From: Elsinoe ampelina
Lineage: Eukaryota
Reading direction: 5' to 3'
Length of the DNA: 64,000 nt
Assembly: GCA_010093995.1 (NCBI GenBank)
Contig: ML992502.1
Coordinates: forward strand, 923,001 to 987,000
Shown here: in pieces, positions 48,770 through 56,488 of the stretch
How the letters are laid out: each line of letters opens with the position of its first letter
Position numbering within the stretch: position 1 is the stretch's first letter
Made by a program: the position numbers and the translations under genes
Notes under the pieces: generated by a model
Seen by the model: the letters and a program-made list of their open reading frames with translations, nothing else
What the model was told of the DNA's origin: nothing
Databases searched by the model: none

Positions 48770-49990
48770 CTATCACGCACTCCCCGGACCTCCCGTCCAA
48801 CCATCCTTCCACCACCTCCCCATAACCCCAAGCGTATTCTCACTAATCCTCCTCTCCAAACTAAACCTCTTCCTCCCGTCCCCGTCCTCCTCCCCGTCCC
48901 CCTTCCCCTCCCCTCCCTCCCCCTCTAATTGCTAAAACTCAAACTCCCCCTTGAACCCATCCAAATCCATGCCCGGTCCCACCTTCTCCATCAGATCCCT
49001 CCTCCCCATCATGCCAAAAATCCTCCGCAACGTATCAAACAAATTCGTGCTCTGATTCTGCATCATCATCTTCTCAATCTTCTCCTCAATCTCCCTATCC
49101 GTCTCCCCACCCACCAACTCCCTCGCCTTCTCTTTCCCCTCCCTCTCCACGACTCTATGCATCGCCAGCGCCCCGAGCAAGTGTCCCGCTGCTTCGGCGT
49201 AGCACCCGATGTTGATGCACGACACGCCGAGGTTGTACCGCGCCCTCACGAAATTAGGACGCAGTTCGAGCGCGTGGCTGTACGCGTCGATGGCCTCTTC
49301 GCTCTGGCCCGAGTTGGCCTTTGTCGCGCCGAGCCTGTTCCAGAGGAGGTGCACCTCTGATTTGGAGTTTGTGATGCCGTCTTCGGTGCTGGCGAGGGCG
49401 GCTTCGAAGCAGTCGATTGCCTTGTCGTATTCTTCCGCGCCGTAGAAGAGGACGCCCAGACCGACCTGCACGTCGGGGTCCATGTGTTCGCCGGAAGGGG
49501 AGAGTTGGGCGGCGCGCAGGAAGAGTTGGGTGACTTTGGCGTGGAGGGCGTGGCGGTCGGTGAAGCCCATTTCGAGCTCGGCGGTGTCGGACGTGAGGGG
49601 CTCGGTGATCAGCGAGGGGTATTTTGTGGCGACCCAGCGTTCGAGGGTGCGGTAGGCGGTGCTGTCGTAGCCTTCGTTGGTGTAGGAGACGGCGAGCGAC
49701 ATTAGGGCGGGGAGGTTTTGGGGGTCGAGCTTGACGGCGCGTTCGAGGGAGCGGATGGCCGGGGTTTCTTTTTCGTTTTGGGCTTGTGCTTGGCCCAGGG
49801 CTGTCCATGCTTCGACGTGTTGGGGGTTGTTTTGGACGGCGGCTTCGAAGGCGAGGGCGGCGAGGGAGAGGTTGCCGCCTTCGTTCATGATGCGCATGCC
49901 TTCTTCGAATGCGTTCGGGATCTGCTTGAAGAAGTTGTCCTCCTCGAAAAGGTAGTCGCCAAGTTCAGGGTCTTGTGTTGTGTGGGTGTT
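48770..49990. other. Skew-inversion domain H (switch ~49200-49350)
   Basis: C-rich from the PEX5 3' flank to ~49170; G-rich at 49450-49990. Confidence 0.85.
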
Positions 49991-50927
49991 GAGTCCGTCA
50001 AAGTTCTGCCACTGCTCGCTGTCCATGTCGCCGCCGATGTGGAGGTTCTCGCCATAATCGTCGTATTCGGCCATTTTCCTGAGAGATTCGTTTTCAGCTT
50101 GTATACCTTTCCAGATATTCTCAAAGTCTCCGAAATTCGTCTCGGAATAGGGATCTTGTTCTACTGACCTGTCAATTCCATTGAGCTCTGCTTCCATGGC
50201 TGCATTTGCCTCACGGTCTAGAGCCTCTTGATCCTCCCCTTGCTCGAGGTTGGCAAATTGTGCTTCCCAGTCTTGATCGTCCAGTTCCACCATCCGGCCT
50301 TTCCCTTTCAGGTCTTGTGGCTGCTGCTGTTGTTGGAACCCAGGTCCGAATGACCGCTGCATCCCCATGCCCATTCCGCCGTATCCGCCATACATGTTGC
50401 CCATCGAGGGTCGGTACGTGCTCATCATCGGCTGTGATTGCTGAAGTGGACTTGTCGCGGAAGCTCTCTGCGCCTGCTGGAAGGTGGCAAAGTCCGTCGG
50501 GCTGAAGGCTCCATTTGCAGGACGCTGGAACGGTTGATCCATACCTTTCTGATGTGGAATACCCGGATCAAACTCTTGCGCCCAGTTCGGTGAAGCGCTC
50601 CGCCGCTGTGTGTTCTCAAGCTCCCTCCTCATTTGCTCCATGGCAAAGGGTTGTGACGCCGGGCCTTGCGGTAGCTGTGCATTTTGCTGCATGAACTCGT
50701 CCATCATCTACTTAGCATTAGCTGAAGCCTAGCTTTGCTAGTGTTACAAAGCATACCGCATCTTGTGGCCCGCCCATGGTCTGCGAACGCATACTCTCCC
50801 CGAGGCCGCCAGGACCCCTGCCGACAAGGCGGTCCCGCTGTAAAGATCGATCATCTTGTGTATGCTTCGTAAATTGTGCCAGTGGGTTGGCCCCAGTCGA
50901 ACATTCGGGGCCGCCGAGGAACGACAT
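48932..50927 (-). CDS. PEX5: Peroxisomal targeting signal 1 receptor Pex5
   Basis: MSFLGGPECS with the conserved N-terminal Cys, WxxxF motifs (WAQEF, WEAQF) and TPRs (LWNRLGATKAN, RARYNLGVSCINIG). One intron. Confidence 0.95.
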
Positions 50928-51410
50928 CGCTGTGTGCGCTCGCAAGGGTGGCGGGGAATGAGTTCGTGAACGAAGGATAGCACGGAAGCAAACCAACCAC
51001 AAAGGAATACAAGCTGTATTTTGAGATGCGTGAAGCAATATGCACAGGTGGAGTTGATCTGTAATTATTGCCTTGGCTGCGGAGTGATCAACGCAGCAGA
51101 AGCCGAGGCACCGTCATCGGCTGTGGGGTTGCCCCTGGGGCAAATTCACATGCTTACAATTTTTGTGTCCCCCTACACGTTTCAAACACCAGAAGTGTGC
51201 AAGGACGTTCATTATAATCCATAAGGTAGCACAGTATACAGTTAGGTCAAATACTTGAAAACGTACAGTATAAGAACACATTATGCAAGCTTTTGAACTT
51301 GTCATTGTCATCTGTCTACAGAAGCAACGCGATCCTAGAATGCACAGTAAAGGGACGAACAGCGCTGTCGACGCCGTTGATATCTCGTATTCTACAGGTG
51401 TTCTCCGTCT

Positions 51411-53740
51411 CTAGTACTTCCTGGCGAAAGGTGGTACCGCCTTGCACTCGTTCTCATCCAGGGTGTGGGCGACCACACCGCGGTAGCCGATGTCGACCTT
51501 GGAGTGCGGCTCCTTCTGCCACGTGAGAGTGTGCTTCATCCAGTTCTCGTCGTCACGGTCGGGGTAGTCCTCGCGGGCGTGGGCACCACGAGACTCTTTA
51601 CGGTTGGCGGCGGCCTCGGCGGTCTGGACGGCGCAGGTGAGCAGGTTGCGGAGTTCGAGAGTCTCGACGAGATCCGAGTTCCAGATCATGCTGCGGTCCT
51701 TGATGCCGACCTGGCTGAAAGTAGAATCCACATCACGCATCTTCTTGACACCCTCGTCGAGCGATTCCTGCGTCCTGAAGACACTGACATCCGCTTGCAT
51801 AACTTTCTGCATGGCAGACCTGATTTCGTTAGTGCTCTTGGGGCCGCTCGAAGTCCTGACAGAGTCGATAACCGAGATGGCCTCGGCACCTGCATCTGCT
51901 GCGATCGGTTGGAGTTTCTGGCCAGGGGTGAATCGGTCTCGAATGGTGTGGCTGACGGCGCGGCCGAAGACAACGAGATCGAGGAGGGAGTTGGCTCCGA
52001 GACGGTTGGCACCGTGAACAGACACACAGGCCGCCTCTCCACAGGCGAAGAGTCCTGGGACGACCTGATCCTTGCCCTGAGAGTCAACTGTGAGAACCTC
52101 ACCCGTATACTTCGTTGGAATTCCTTGCAACTTGTTAGCTTCAGAACAACGACAACGGCTTTAAAAACTTATTCCCATATTGTAATGTACAGTGGGAAGC
52201 ACAGGGATAGGTTGTTTACTATTAGAAGTGTCAGTATCGAATGGTATAGGCCAAAAGGTGGTTTGGGTGAGGAAAAAAAGGGGGCTTGGCAAATGAAGTC
52301 GGGAAGTCCCGGGGATGGCTTGGCGCGACGAACGCCACTCCAGACCAGCCCGGAACACCGAAATTGTGGAAGACCTGAGGTGGATACTCACCGGACGTCG
52401 ACTCCAGCGAAAATCGAGGCGGTTTCAGAAATACCAGGGAGACGCTCGTGGAGAACCTCAGGCGGCAAGTGAGAGAGCTGCAGGTAGATGTGATCCTTCT
52501 CTGGTCCAACACCGCGACCCTCACGGATCTCCATAGTCATTGATCGAGAGACGACATCTCGAGAAGCCAGATCCTTCGCAGTCGGGGCATAACGCTCCAT
52601 AAATCGCTCACCCTCGGAGTTGAGGAGGTAGCCTCCCTCACCACGAGAACCTTCAGTGATCAAGCAACCAGCTCCATAGATACCAGTTGGGTGGAACTGG
52701 ACGAACTCGAGATCCTGGTTGGGAAGACCGGCGCGGGCGACCATGGCCATTCCGTCACCAGTGCAAGTGTGAGCAGATGTGCAGGAGAAGTATGCGCGTC
52801 CGTATCCGCCGGTGGCAAGAACGGTGTTGTTGGCGTGGAAGCGGTGGATGGTTCCGTCTTCCTGGTTGTAGGCGATGACACCCTTGCAGACACCATCCTC
52901 CATAATCAGGTCGGTGGCGAAGTACTCGATGAAGTAGTTGGTATTGTGCCTGAGAGATTGTCCGTAAAGAGTGTGCAGAAGGGCGTGACCAGTCCTGTCA
53001 GCTGCGGCGCAACATCTGTATGCCTGGCCACCCTGACCGAATTTCTGGCTTTGACCACCGAACGCGCGCTGGTAGATCTTCCCATCCTCGGTTCTCGAGA
53101 AGGGGCAACCGTAGTTCTCGAGCTCGTAGACACTGGCGGGCGCCTCACGGGTCATGTAGTGAATGGCATCCTGATCACCAAGCCAATCTGAACCCTTGAC
53201 TGTGTCGTACATGTGCCACCTCCAGTCATCCTCGTGCATACTGTCGCCACTTATCAGTATACCCCTATACCGATACATCTTCGCCACTTACTTTCCCAAA
53301 GCGGCATTGATACCACCCTGAGCAGCGACCGTGTGACTTCTGGTCGGGAACAACTTGGATATGCACGCTGTGTTGAATCCTGCCTCTGCCAGACCGAATG
53401 CTGCTCTTAAACCTGATCCACCGGCTCCTACAACAAGAGCATCGTACTCGTGATCGATGACCGGGTACTTGTTGGAGATGAATGGAGATGCCTCCTTTGC
53501 GCGTAACGGCTGATTCGTGATGATCTTTGCGGCTGGCGCTGTGCGGGAAAAGTTGCGTAGTTGCTGTCTCTGAAAGCTACGGGGCAGCTGACATGAATCT
53601 TCAGTATGCGCCCACCAAACAATGTCGCCACGAAAACAAAAATGACTGCTTCGGAGCTGCGGGGACGACAAAGCACGTGGGAGAAGGGGCTAGCTCACCT
53701 TGGAAACTGCCTGTAGCGGTCTCAAGCCAAACGAGCTCAT
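51411..53740 (-). CDS. SDH1: Succinate dehydrogenase flavoprotein subunit
   Basis: Exons 53740-53699, 53587-53292, 53240-52392, 52218-52173 and 52124-51411. [33 protein letters not shown] and [11 protein letters not shown] motifs. The last intron is non-canonical AT-AA. Confidence 0.97.
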
Positions 53741-53909
53741 TTTGACAACGCAGTACACTTGGAGAGTATGGGAAGTCAAATTGAGGGTGTAGGAAATGGA
53801 AGAGGGGAGAGTGGTAGACGAAGTGCAAAGACAGATTCCCAGGGAAGTGTATGATGAAGTTGGAGGCGTTCCCTCGGCTGTCGACGAGCAAAGATCGGGG
53901 GGCAACTGA

Positions 53910-53914
53910 CCAAT
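53910..53914 (+). promoter_or_regulatory. CCAAT box upstream of SDH1 (candidate CBC/HAP site)
   Basis: TGACCAATCA lies ~170 bp upstream of the SDH1 ATG. Respiratory genes are typical CCAAT-binding-complex targets. Confidence 0.4.
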
Positions 53915-54375
53915 CACATCAAGCATTAATACGCATCATTCGAGATCCAGATCTGGCTTGGCTTCTGCGCGGATCTGCCTTTCGGCTCTCACATGCATTT
54001 ACGTGCGTGGTTGGAAATGGTTGGACGAGATCTCAGGTTGGGGGTGCCTTTCCCGTATGAGTTCTTTCCCTCAGGAAATTCGATCACTTGGAGGACTTTA
54101 ACCTCACTTTACAAGTGTACGCCAGATTTACCACTGCTGGACTTCATCTCATTCGAAATACCTTGCTGCCGTTAAAAACTCATCACACCATGCTGAACAG
54201 GATGACATCTCACGAAGAAGATTTTTTCAGGTTCCGCTCTATCGCAATTGATATATTCAAGGAATGTACATGCGGTCCTGAGACGCTGCTCTTGGTCTGA
54301 CCGGAACGCCACGCTATGTCGCCAACACAGGTATACGAAACAAGCCACATCTCTATCCCATCTTCGGTCCTTCCA

Positions 54376-56488
54376 TCACGGCATCTCTTCCTCGTTCCGA
54401 GACTTCTTCTTCTGAAGCAACGATCCGAATTTTGCCTTGCTTCCCTCAGTCTCGGTGTCGCTCTGATCCGCATCCGTGCTCATGCCGAGATCAGATTCGG
54501 CACCGGAGGGCAGCTTGGACGGGCTGCGACTCCTTTCTTCTAGACCACCGGGTTGTGCAAGTTGTGTGAACGTCAATGCCTCGTCGAGGCGTCGGCTTCG
54601 TTTGCTGCGGAGACTTCGTCGCCGGAGAGAAGTACCAGGTATGTGATCGACGCCACGACGCAGAGATTCAGCCACGATGGCGCTGAGTGAGCCACTCAGC
54701 GGGTTGGTCAAAGGGCCAGGATGCGGCAACATGTCTGCGATCGAATGCCTGCCGATACTGCCAAAGCGAGGTGTTGTTGCACTCGATGGCTCTGGAAATG
54801 GAGCGTTTTCTGGTGTTCGAGGACGCTCTTGCGTGGTGGACCGGAGTAGCGGCGATGATGCATCTGGACTTCGCAGCAGATTCACAGATCGCTCGGACAT
54901 GGCCGATGTAGGTAGGACCGGTTCAGACGTGGTCGCATGCATGCGAGGCTTCCTCGATCGTTCTGGTGAATCAGAAGGCCCTCTCATCCTGGCCGGACTG
55001 TGGTGTACAGCGGCGTTGGCCGCAGGTGCATGAGCTGACACAAGCGCTCCTGGAAACAGATCTTCTGGCACTTCCAGCGGCTCAGCATTGTCCGAGCTGG
55101 TGTCAATCTTCAGGATAGGACCGGCCGACATGGAAGATTTGATCCTCTGAGGCGTATGAGGTCTGGCGGATCTAGTGCTCCTTCCGTACGCAGGTTCGGC
55201 ATCATCCGTATAGAGATGGATGCCCTCTTCCTCGTCTGATGACCCTTCCTCTTCATCTTGACTGTCTTTACCACGACCCGAAGTAATGCACCACACTCCC
55301 AGAAAGGTCAACGCACATCCGGCGAAGAATTTGACGGCATCTTCCGCGGATTTGCGCTCAAAGTCTCGATAGAGAATCGCGCTGCCGATGATGACGGACA
55401 GAGTGAACATGACGAATTGAATAGGTATGACCTGGGTGGAGTCGAATCTCTGCAGTGCCCGGTTGACGTACTTGATCTGCGCAATCGCTGTCCCGATGAG
55501 AACGAAGAGCAGGAGATACGTCACGGGAAAAGTCACGACTCTCCAGATGGTATTCGAGAGAAGTGAAGCAACGCCTTTGGTGGACAGAGCAGTATAGCCA
55601 CCTGTAAATGTCAGCAAGAATGACCGTCGCCATGTGCATGACGTGCTTACCAAAGAGACCGACAAGACCAAGATCAATGAGAATGCTCTTATCGCCGTAT
55701 TTGTTGCTTGCCACAATGAGCACCACCGTCAAAAACGCAGTAATACCAAAGTACGTCTCAAACTCCCAAGTGCTTATGAGAGCCCAAATTTGATCCGCCG
55801 TCAGCTTCGGATTGTTCCCACTCGCACTGAGCACCACCACGACACACCCAGCCACAGCAATGACCACACCCAACGCATCCTTCTTCCTAAACTTCTCATG
55901 CAACATCCACGGCGCGATCAAGCAATTCGAGATCAACGCCACCACTCCCAACGGCGACACAATCGACGCCGGCGCAAAACCATACGCCAGGAAATTCCCA
56001 CACTCCCCCACCACCATCAGACTGATCCCCAACCACCACCACCCACTCGACAAATAGCTCTTATCCTTCACCTCCCCCTTCTCCTCCCTCCCGGAGCCCA
56101 CAGTATACACCGAATCCCTCCTCTCCCCATCCTCAAGCAGCGCCTCACTCTCCCCCCGTTTGAAAGTCAAACTCTCCCTCCTACTCCCCCCCTCCAACGT
56201 CCCCCTCCTCTCCCTCGTCTGCCCCGTCCCATCTTCCTGCGCAGTCCCATACCCTCTCGTCACCTCTCTCTTCCTCCCCTTATCGCTCCTCGCCTTCGAT
56301 TCCTGCTCCCGCTCCTCCCGCTCCCGGTTCAGCTTGATGTGGGCGTATCGTTGCGTGTTCAGCGCGAAGGAAATGAGGATGTTACCCACGATGGCGACGA
56401 CGATGCCGATGATGCTGCTCCAGCCGCCGGCCGGGGGGTCGGCGCGCATGTGCCATTGGGGGTGGAGTGGGAGGGTTGGGTTGGCCAT
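54376..56488 (-). CDS. NIPA-family (DUF803) Mg2+ transporter-like protein
   Basis: ILISFALNTQRYAH, GECGNFLAYGFAPASIVSPLG and YVNRALQRFDSTQVIP motifs. Intron at ~55602-55650. An in-frame upstream ATG at 56806 makes the start uncertain. Confidence 0.88.

Follow-up and report, generated by a model that had tools for sequence, protein, structure and literature searches.

An AT-AA intron, probably removed by the major spliceosome, within the HYNMGGIPT motif of SDH1 in Elsinoe ampelina

Introduction

U2-type introns with AT-AC ends are very rare; 24 have been recorded in five genomes (PMC1557818). They carry a strong /ATAAGT donor consensus (PMC5029451; PMC1557818, section 20), and the human examples, in SCN4A and SCN5A, have A at position +1 of such a donor and no U12 motifs (PMC1557818, PMC5029451). 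Here, we describe an intron related to this class in a 64,000-nucleotide (nt) stretch of the Elsinoe ampelina genome (contig ML992502.1, positions 923,001 to 987,000). We refer to the whole stretch as the window and use its numbering throughout. The gene is SDH1, on the minus strand, encoding the SdhA flavoprotein subunit of complex II. Its fourth intron (intron 4; 52125..52172) starts with AT, ends with AA, and interrupts the motif HYNMGGIPT. Like the human introns, it has A(+1) in an ATAAGT donor, lacks U12 motifs, and is attributed to the major spliceosome. The differences are that it ends in A, that it is fungal and 48 nt long, that its host gene has a housekeeping function in respiration, and that it is probably a recent intron, without ancient conservation.

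A similar donor is found in the telomerase RNA gene (TER1) of Aspergillus, which is also a member of the Pezizomycotina. The TER1 intron has the non-canonical 5' site AUA(A/C)GU, and the major spliceosome performs step 1 (PMC4299874). Because A(+1) is unable to pair with the AG at the 3' site, splicing halts before step 2 and the 5' cleavage product serves as the mature RNA; full splicing is recovered with the A1G substitution (PMC4299874). SDH1 intron 4 differs, in that its 3' end is AA and exon ligation is completed. A further natural A(+1) intron is the nested AT-AC intron of yeast RPL30 and, as with SDH1, the host is an ascomycete without a minor spliceosome (PMC5029451). The RPL30 intron has a non-consensus donor and is a 1-2% side product (PMC5029451), whereas the AT-AA junction of SDH1 is the form found in assembled messenger RNA (mRNA).

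The terminal dinucleotides of intron 4 are identical to those of certain U12-type introns. Thus, AT-AA termini are documented in eight non-canonical introns of this type (PMC1557818, Table 2; PMC10639083). In contrast to these, intron 4 has neither ATATCC nor TCCTTAAC, and its host phylum is reported to be without a minor spliceosome. Specifically, the Ascomycota have no convincing minor introns and have lost most or all minor small nuclear RNAs (PMC10639083). Among annotated fungal introns, 0.019% are AT-AC and 0.257% have 'other' combinations (PMC7072748, Table 1). One supplement text of that paper has no AT-AA entry, though its full combination lists may include annotated fungal cases. In the open literature searched, as judged by title and abstract, AT-AA ends were confined to introns of the minor spliceosome.

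The principle invoked here is that the first and last intron nucleotides must be compatible. Parker and Siliciano, in 1993, and others reportedly observed suppression between these positions in engineered introns. In yeast and human constructs, a +1 G-to-A change is rescued by changing the last G (as cited in PMC1557818, PMC4299874, PMC11585973, and bioRxiv 10.1101/212811). The rescue documented in these sources is by C, as opposed to the last-base A of SDH1 intron 4.

Results

A 48-nt cut restores the HYNMGGIPT motif

On the gene strand, the sequence reads CAT TAC AAT ATG GGA, then ATAAGT…GCTAAC…TTGCAA, and then GGA ATT CCA ACG, with the central block running from 52172 to 52125. A first-pass annotation, made from the sequence alone, had described a 48-nt AT…AA block at 52125..52172, inside HYNMG|GIPT. 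On re-reading the sequence, this description matched letter for letter. The motif includes a histidine that we take to be an active-site residue of SDH1, and it is intact only once the 48 nt are taken out. As was also proposed, retention of the block yields HYNMGISF followed by an in-frame TAA; the open reading frame (ORF) at 52161..52424 ends there.

To define the possible registers, we enumerated every in-frame, stop-free cut with a donor between 52162 and 52190 and an acceptor between 52111 and 52135. The motif was restored by the AT…AA cut (52173|52124) and, otherwise, only by its one-base slide, AA…CA (52174|52125). A GA…AG register of 51 nt gave HYNMGIPT, with one glycine lost. This last outcome agrees with the first-pass annotation. 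However, a canonical GT…AG register had been overlooked. This register is 45 nt long (52124..52168), has a weak GTTTTT donor, and would give HYNMGIRIPT. It is not the joint of either transcript contig described below (X3 and X7).

Protein searches supplied 240 homologues for comparison. HYNMG is present in 222 of the 240, the second G follows in all 222, and none of these 222 has the HYNMGIRIPT reading. The exact string HYNMGGIPT occurs in 192/240, and HYNMGI or HYNMG-IPT in none. The other 18 sequences are truncated, run into introns elsewhere, read HYAMGG or HYCMGG, or are missing the exon (P0001, discussed below). Since the GG pair is invariant in 222/222 motif-bearing homologues, we conclude that the SDH1 protein requires the 48-nt register.

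Two further features of the borders are relevant. First, an unused AG ends 1 nt past the 3' end of intron 4, at 52124; its use would shift the frame. Second, a GGAAT direct repeat is present at both borders (52120-52124 and 52171-52175). The copies are 51 nt apart and coincide with the GA-AG register.

The intron 4 junction is found in assembled transcript contigs

The transcript evidence consists of assembled contigs. Note that none of the matching runs is registered as RNA, that the RNA or DNA labels of the sequencing runs are guesses, and that such contigs carry no information on levels or rare isoforms. Four runs (X3, X7, X13, and X14) were aligned to positions 51850-52650. The first-pass annotation had proposed a search for sequences joining 52124 to 52173. 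This junction was found, in an X3 contig of 2186 nt (study P2) and an X7 contig of 2164 nt (study P3). Both contigs match the exons with 0 differences. At the joint, 48 nt are skipped, with ends that are TT..AT on the plus strand and AT..AA on the gene strand; a 1-nt slide is possible. Each of these contigs has a second joint, between 52218 and 52392, where 173 nt with GT..AG ends on the gene strand are skipped; we treat this as an internal control. We can confirm that the 48 nt are absent from mRNA-length contigs, exactly at the junction that restores the invariant HYNMGGIPT.

The longest records in X3 and X7 are 12-14 kilobases (kb), which is transcriptome-like, whereas the genomic run X14 has one of 346 kb. 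Of the 245 sampled words, a share of 0.77-0.78 was present in each of nine runs (X3-X11), which come from three studies; the share computed for an mRNA with the four introns removed is 0.79. With the words of intron 4 present, the expected share is 0.82; the comparison is uninformative on retention or efficiency. Likewise, the inside of introns 3 and 4 is covered by no X3 or X7 contig and, since contigs drop rare forms, this too says nothing about retention.

A similar result was obtained with run X13, from organism D, which has approximately 7% exon divergence. A 1089-nt contig has the same two joints and carries a synonymous change (GGC|GGA) at the last base of its mini-exon. Although the label of the run is 'DNA?', we read it as RNA because its longest record, 11.5 kb, is transcriptome-like. 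If it were DNA, organism D would be without introns 3 and 4 at this place and would be silent on splicing. Finally, the contig sets X1 and X2, from what is possibly the source sample, hold 1.00 of the 245 sampled words; they are not independent of the assembly.

Intron 4 has the internal signals of a U2-type intron

The 5' splice site of intron 4 is ATAAGT (52167..52172), the GTAAGT consensus with A at +1. The branch motif is GCTAAC (52134..52139), from which a branch A is predicted at 52135, 10 nt before the intron ends. At the 3' splice site, the sequence is CAA| (52125..52127), or CAG with A in place of the last G. The assertion that the internal signals are of the U2 type, within AT-AA termini, is therefore borne out. 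So, too, is the claimed lack of U12 signatures; neither ATATCC nor TCCTTAAC is present. The relevant sequence is GAAGCTAAC, and this contains no TCCTTAAC branch motif.

The other introns of the gene are informative. Donors of introns 1-3 are GTGAGC, GTAAGT, and GTGAGT, and the intron 4 donor fits GTRAGT from +2 to +6. The distance from the CTRAY branch motif to the 3' end is 10 nt in intron 4, 13 nt in intron 2, and 12 nt in intron 3. In length, intron 4 (48 nt) is similar to intron 2 (51 nt). It is removed exactly, with the frame restored, as a major-type intron would be. Its termini are AT…AA, rather than the GT…AG or GC…AG of such introns. With respect to class II AT-AC introns, the A(+1) and /ATAAGT-like donor are present, but the last base, at 52125, is A rather than C. 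Hence, intron 4 is a variant, and not a member, of the U2-type AT-AC class. Because the signals are like those of neighbouring introns, U12 motifs are absent, and no minor introns are reported in Ascomycota, we attribute its removal to the major spliceosome.

A composite motif search returned 1 match, with 0.02 expected; the pattern was built from intron 4 itself, so this is descriptive only. BLAST comparison of the four introns to the 64-kb window found no copies, only chance matches of at most 18 nt. Hence, by this weak test, there is no sign of an introner-like origin within 64 kb. The predicted fold of the mini-exon, intron 4, and flank is unremarkable (z -1.9, equalled by 8 of 200 shuffled sequences), and no bulge-helix-bulge or Ire1-like motif was seen in it.

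Introns 3 and 4 occur in a narrow lineage

We then examined related SDH1 loci. Run X14, from organism E, includes a 134-kb DNA contig that keeps introns 3 and 4, with 80 differences and 6 gaps over 796 nt. The acceptor of intron 4 is canonical here (…CAG|GGC) and is preceded by GCTAAT, which resembles a branch motif. Given the canonical CAG of organism E, at least the 3' terminal A of intron 4 looks derived. Within the narrow lineage, at least the 3' terminal base of this intron appears, from these sequences, to vary between G and A.

More distant loci were taken from metagenomes. We fetched 80 that encode relatives of exon 5 and examined 43. The 37 left out were L030, where the match starts at residue 63 and the junction is uncovered, and 36 more distant loci at 52-61% identity. 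All 43 fungal loci read straight through HYNMG|GIPT, without intron 4. For the intron 3 position, the same holds in 42 of the 43; the sequence of L021 does not extend far enough upstream. Contigs longer than 5 kb, which cannot be cDNA (complementary DNA), account for at least 23 of the loci; some of the short contigs could be cDNA. We conclude that both introns belong to a narrow lineage only, because other fungal loci read through. The first-pass annotation, which had suggested a check for conserved AT-AA/AT-AC ends across Pezizomycotina, had no means of knowing that the intron is absent from 43/43 loci and that the acceptor of organism E is CAG.

Among named proteins, the best match over exon 5 is an Elsinoe fawcettii entry, with 97% identity; the next best is 87% identical. 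The E. fawcettii model, P0001, is a 633-residue 'FAD-binding domain-containing protein 76' that reads …AGVDVSGIPTKY…, giving GVDVSGIPT. It lacks exactly the 15 mini-exon residues, including the HYNMG half-motif, and aligns to the SDH1 model with 618 identical residues and 15 gap columns. The gap is probably a gene-prediction error at the same intron, of the sort that a predictor limited to GT-AG would make. This hints, at the level of sequence, that E. fawcettii may have non-canonical ends too. In the window sequence there is no GT-AG pair that yields GVDVSGIPT, therefore E. fawcettii differs locally. A protein search with exon 3, for truncated models reading …HYNMGIS or …HYNMGVS, returned no Elsinoe-level match.

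Other models have discontinuities close to this site. The truncated ORF-type models P0175, P0220, P0143, P0177, and P0195, all from other taxa, end directly behind HYNMGG, HYNM, or HYN, which points to introns of separate origin in other lineages (e.g. Lentinula), a few bases from the G|G site and not at it. Metagenome locus L010 has a frame break just upstream of FAGVDV, equivalent to an intron at another nearby position. Separately, dozens of 'succinate flavoprotein subunit' models from Xylariales and Sordariales are 1,480-1,670 residues long (e.g. P0010, P0013-P0016, and P0019-P0021). Precomputed Pfam annotation of these has FAD_binding_2 and Succ_DH_flav_C separated by PX-domain families (PF12825, PF00787, and PF12828), as if separate gene models had been fused or another gene lay inside an intron of SDH1.

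Organization of SDH1 and its surroundings

From start to stop codon, SDH1 occupies 51411..53740 on the minus strand, as do all of its parts, and has five exons. Following removal of intron 4, the coding sequence is 1947 nt and specifies 648 residues with a single terminal stop. In a protein alignment with P0002, also 648 residues, 592/648 positions are identical and there are 0 gap columns. Pfam detects FAD_binding_2 (PF00890, 275 bits) and Succ_DH_flav_C (PF02910, 167 bits). With both domains, colinearity with orthologues, and an intact HYNMGGIPT, the product can be identified as SdhA/Sdh1.

Exon 1 (53699..53740) encodes 14 residues. It is followed by intron 1 (53588..53698; 111 nt, GTGAGC…CAG, phase 0), exon 2 (53292..53587), and intron 2 (53241..53291; 51 nt, GTAAGT…ACTGAT…CAG, phase 2). 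Both introns were placed by protein colinearity. Exon 3 (52392..53240) encodes most of the FAD-binding domain, matching FAD_binding_2, and is covered by the X3 and X7 contigs at 52392-52650. Intron 3 (52219..52391; 173 nt, phase 2) is canonical, with GTGAGT…ACTGAC…TAG, and the joint from 52218 to 52392 is present in X3, X7, and X13. Next is the mini-exon (52173..52218), 46 nt encoding (R) plus 15 residues, which is a separate piece in the same three runs. Intron 4 is in phase 0. Exon 5 (51411..52124) runs from GIPTKYTG… to the stop codon and encodes the end of FAD_binding_2, as well as Succ_DH_flav_C.

SDH1 is flanked by long uninterrupted ORFs, at 48932-50707 (591 residues) and 54376-55728 (450 residues), both on the minus strand. 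Our impression is that the former has the look of a PEX5-type peroxisomal import receptor, with W-x-x-x-F-like repeats and a TPR-like tail. An Rfam search of 51000-54000 gave a single sub-threshold match, outside SDH1 (20 compared with 82 bits), which we take to be chance.

Discussion

A model for removal of intron 4

We consider intron 4 to be a genuine U2-type intron, with both terminal Gs changed to A, that is constitutively spliced by the major spliceosome and is not a switch. We give this a probability of roughly 0.78. According to this model, U1 and U6 would recognize the otherwise perfect xTAAGT donor and U2 would pair with the branch site, CTAAC, which lies 10 nt short of the 3' end. 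Step 1 would then proceed as it does at the AUA(A/C)GU 5' site of Aspergillus telomerase RNA. For exon ligation, a comparison can be made with the yeast P complex, in which G(-1) forms a non-Watson-Crick pair with G(+1) of the 5' splice site and A(-2) pairs with the branch A (bioRxiv 10.1101/212811). Modelling in the same work judged an AU…AC combination tolerable. In intron 4, an A(+1)·A(-1) contact would take the place of the usual G(+1)·G(-1) pair. This proposed replacement would be the reason that ligation follows CAA|, and not the AAG| one base further on. Put another way, a compatibility rule for first and last nucleotides predicts use of CAA|, provided that the rule admits A·A but not A·G. 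Any frameshifted AAG| product is probably degraded and thus invisible in the contigs.

Turning to its history, intron 4 may be a young, narrow-lineage intron that descended from a GT-AG form, as judged from the CAG acceptor kept by organism E. The AT-AA state could persist because it is 'trapped', with return needing changes at both ends. This is the explanation offered for U2-type AT-AC introns, where a subtype switch needs simultaneous changes at both ends (PMC2831892). The most far-reaching account, which we put forward tentatively and regard as doubtful in its full form, is that a gene essential for respiration has naturally acquired, within one fungal lineage, an AT-AA intron with RNA support that the major spliceosome removes, through replacement of G by A at each end of what had been a young GT-AG intron.

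Several points weigh against our preferred reading. All RNA evidence is from assembled contigs whose RNA nature is a guess, and cDNA gives the same product for AT-AA and for the slide, AA-CA. Both terminal As rest on the assembly and on contigs from the same sample. The GT-AG ancestor is half shown, organism E having been read at the acceptor only. Furthermore, both one-step intermediates, AT-AG and GT-AA, should be harmful in SDH1; because of this, the route to AT-AA is unexplained. U2-type splicing is described as less flexible than U12-type splicing at terminal positions (PMC2831892). Finally, the literature, in the excerpts available, documents A·C only, and no experiment on A(+1)·A(-1) exon ligation in U2-type splicing was found there.

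Other explanations

The first-pass annotation favoured a different role, in which intron 4 is deliberately weak and its slow or conditional removal throttles complex II by means of retention, the in-frame TAA, and nonsense-mediated decay. Certain properties fit. Retention does give HYNMGISF and a stop, and the AG 1 nt past the used site would shift the frame. In addition, A at +1 hinders step 2 (PMC4299874), and engineered AT-AC rescue is 'less efficient' (PMC1557818, section 20). Nonetheless, our data offer no support, with contigs being silent on levels, retention, and regulation. Since the acceptor is canonical in a relative, organism E, and 43/43 other fungi are without the intron, any such control would be a very recent novelty. 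Moreover, the 'trapped' argument (PMC2831892) accounts for persistence without function. We judge a regulatory switch to be improbable.

A smaller departure from our model is that the true cut is the one-base slide, AA…CA (52174|52125). The mRNA, the protein, and the cDNA would all be the same. However, the AT-AA register can be superimposed position by position on GTAAGT…CAG, and also on the /ATAAGT class (PMC5029451). The AAUAAG donor of the slide loses alignment of the +5 G and +6 U, and CAG| in organism E sits in the AT-AA register. The slide is, consequently, the poorer description and we think it quite unlikely.

A third view is that the genome really has GT…AG at an ordinary intron and that the assembly is wrong. 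The G at the acceptor of organism E, and the dependence of the terminal As on a single sample, are compatible with this. Two independent G-to-A errors would be needed, exactly at both ends of the intron. Against this, too, X1 and X2 hold every sampled word and the P0001 model fails at the same exon, as expected if the predictor met non-canonical ends there. An assembly error is very unlikely.

We give hardly any credence to a U12-type intron. While AT-AA is the commonest non-canonical ending of minor introns, and accounts for the eight cases noted above (PMC1557818, Table 2; PMC10639083), the donor is ATAAGT rather than ATATCC or GTATCC. At 10-15 nt before the 3' end, the TCCTTAAC branch motif is also absent and, as already cited, the Ascomycota have no convincing minor introns and have lost most or all minor small nuclear RNAs.

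A-to-I editing of both terminal As, ahead of splicing, was suggested in the first-pass annotation as a less likely alternative; inosine reads as G. Two particular intronic As of a housekeeping pre-mRNA would have to be edited efficiently, in material from two studies with unrecorded conditions. Nothing in the data suggests or needs this, and the unremarkable fold gives no sign of an editing-type duplex; we find the idea scarcely plausible.

The junction could, lastly, be an artefact of template switching by reverse transcriptase, or of non-spliceosomal excision, to which the GGAAT repeat at both borders might lend itself, but this is highly improbable: a jump across the repeat removes 51 nt and gives HYNMGIPT, whereas the observed skip is 48 nt with a 1-nt overlap, the same junction is present in contigs of two studies and in organism D with one synonymous change, and the cut restores an invariant motif in a region without special structure.

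Implications

SDH1 intron 4 adds an A-ended form to the class of U2-type introns that start with A, in an essential gene, with RNA support, and with a canonical acceptor in a relative. A U2-type AT-AA case, in a phylum without the minor machinery, would extend the catalogue, because AT-AA otherwise appears only for minor-spliceosome introns in the open literature searched. The locus is also a natural test of the rule for first and last nucleotides. Thus, an AUAAGU donor that stops after step 1 in Aspergillus telomerase RNA completes splicing with AA. Organism E has AG at this acceptor, which allows both states to be compared in almost identical surroundings. There is a practical consequence for annotation; predictors allowing only GT/GC-AG will mis-model SDH1 in this group, and the canonical register would insert two wrong residues. 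If the far-reaching account given above is true, exon ligation with an A(+1)·A(-1) pair is efficient enough in vivo to sustain respiration, and the spliceosome prefers CAA| to an AG one base downstream when +1 is A. It would follow that either this lineage tolerates unusual terminal pairs genome-wide, or the output of complex II is limited by splicing of intron 4.

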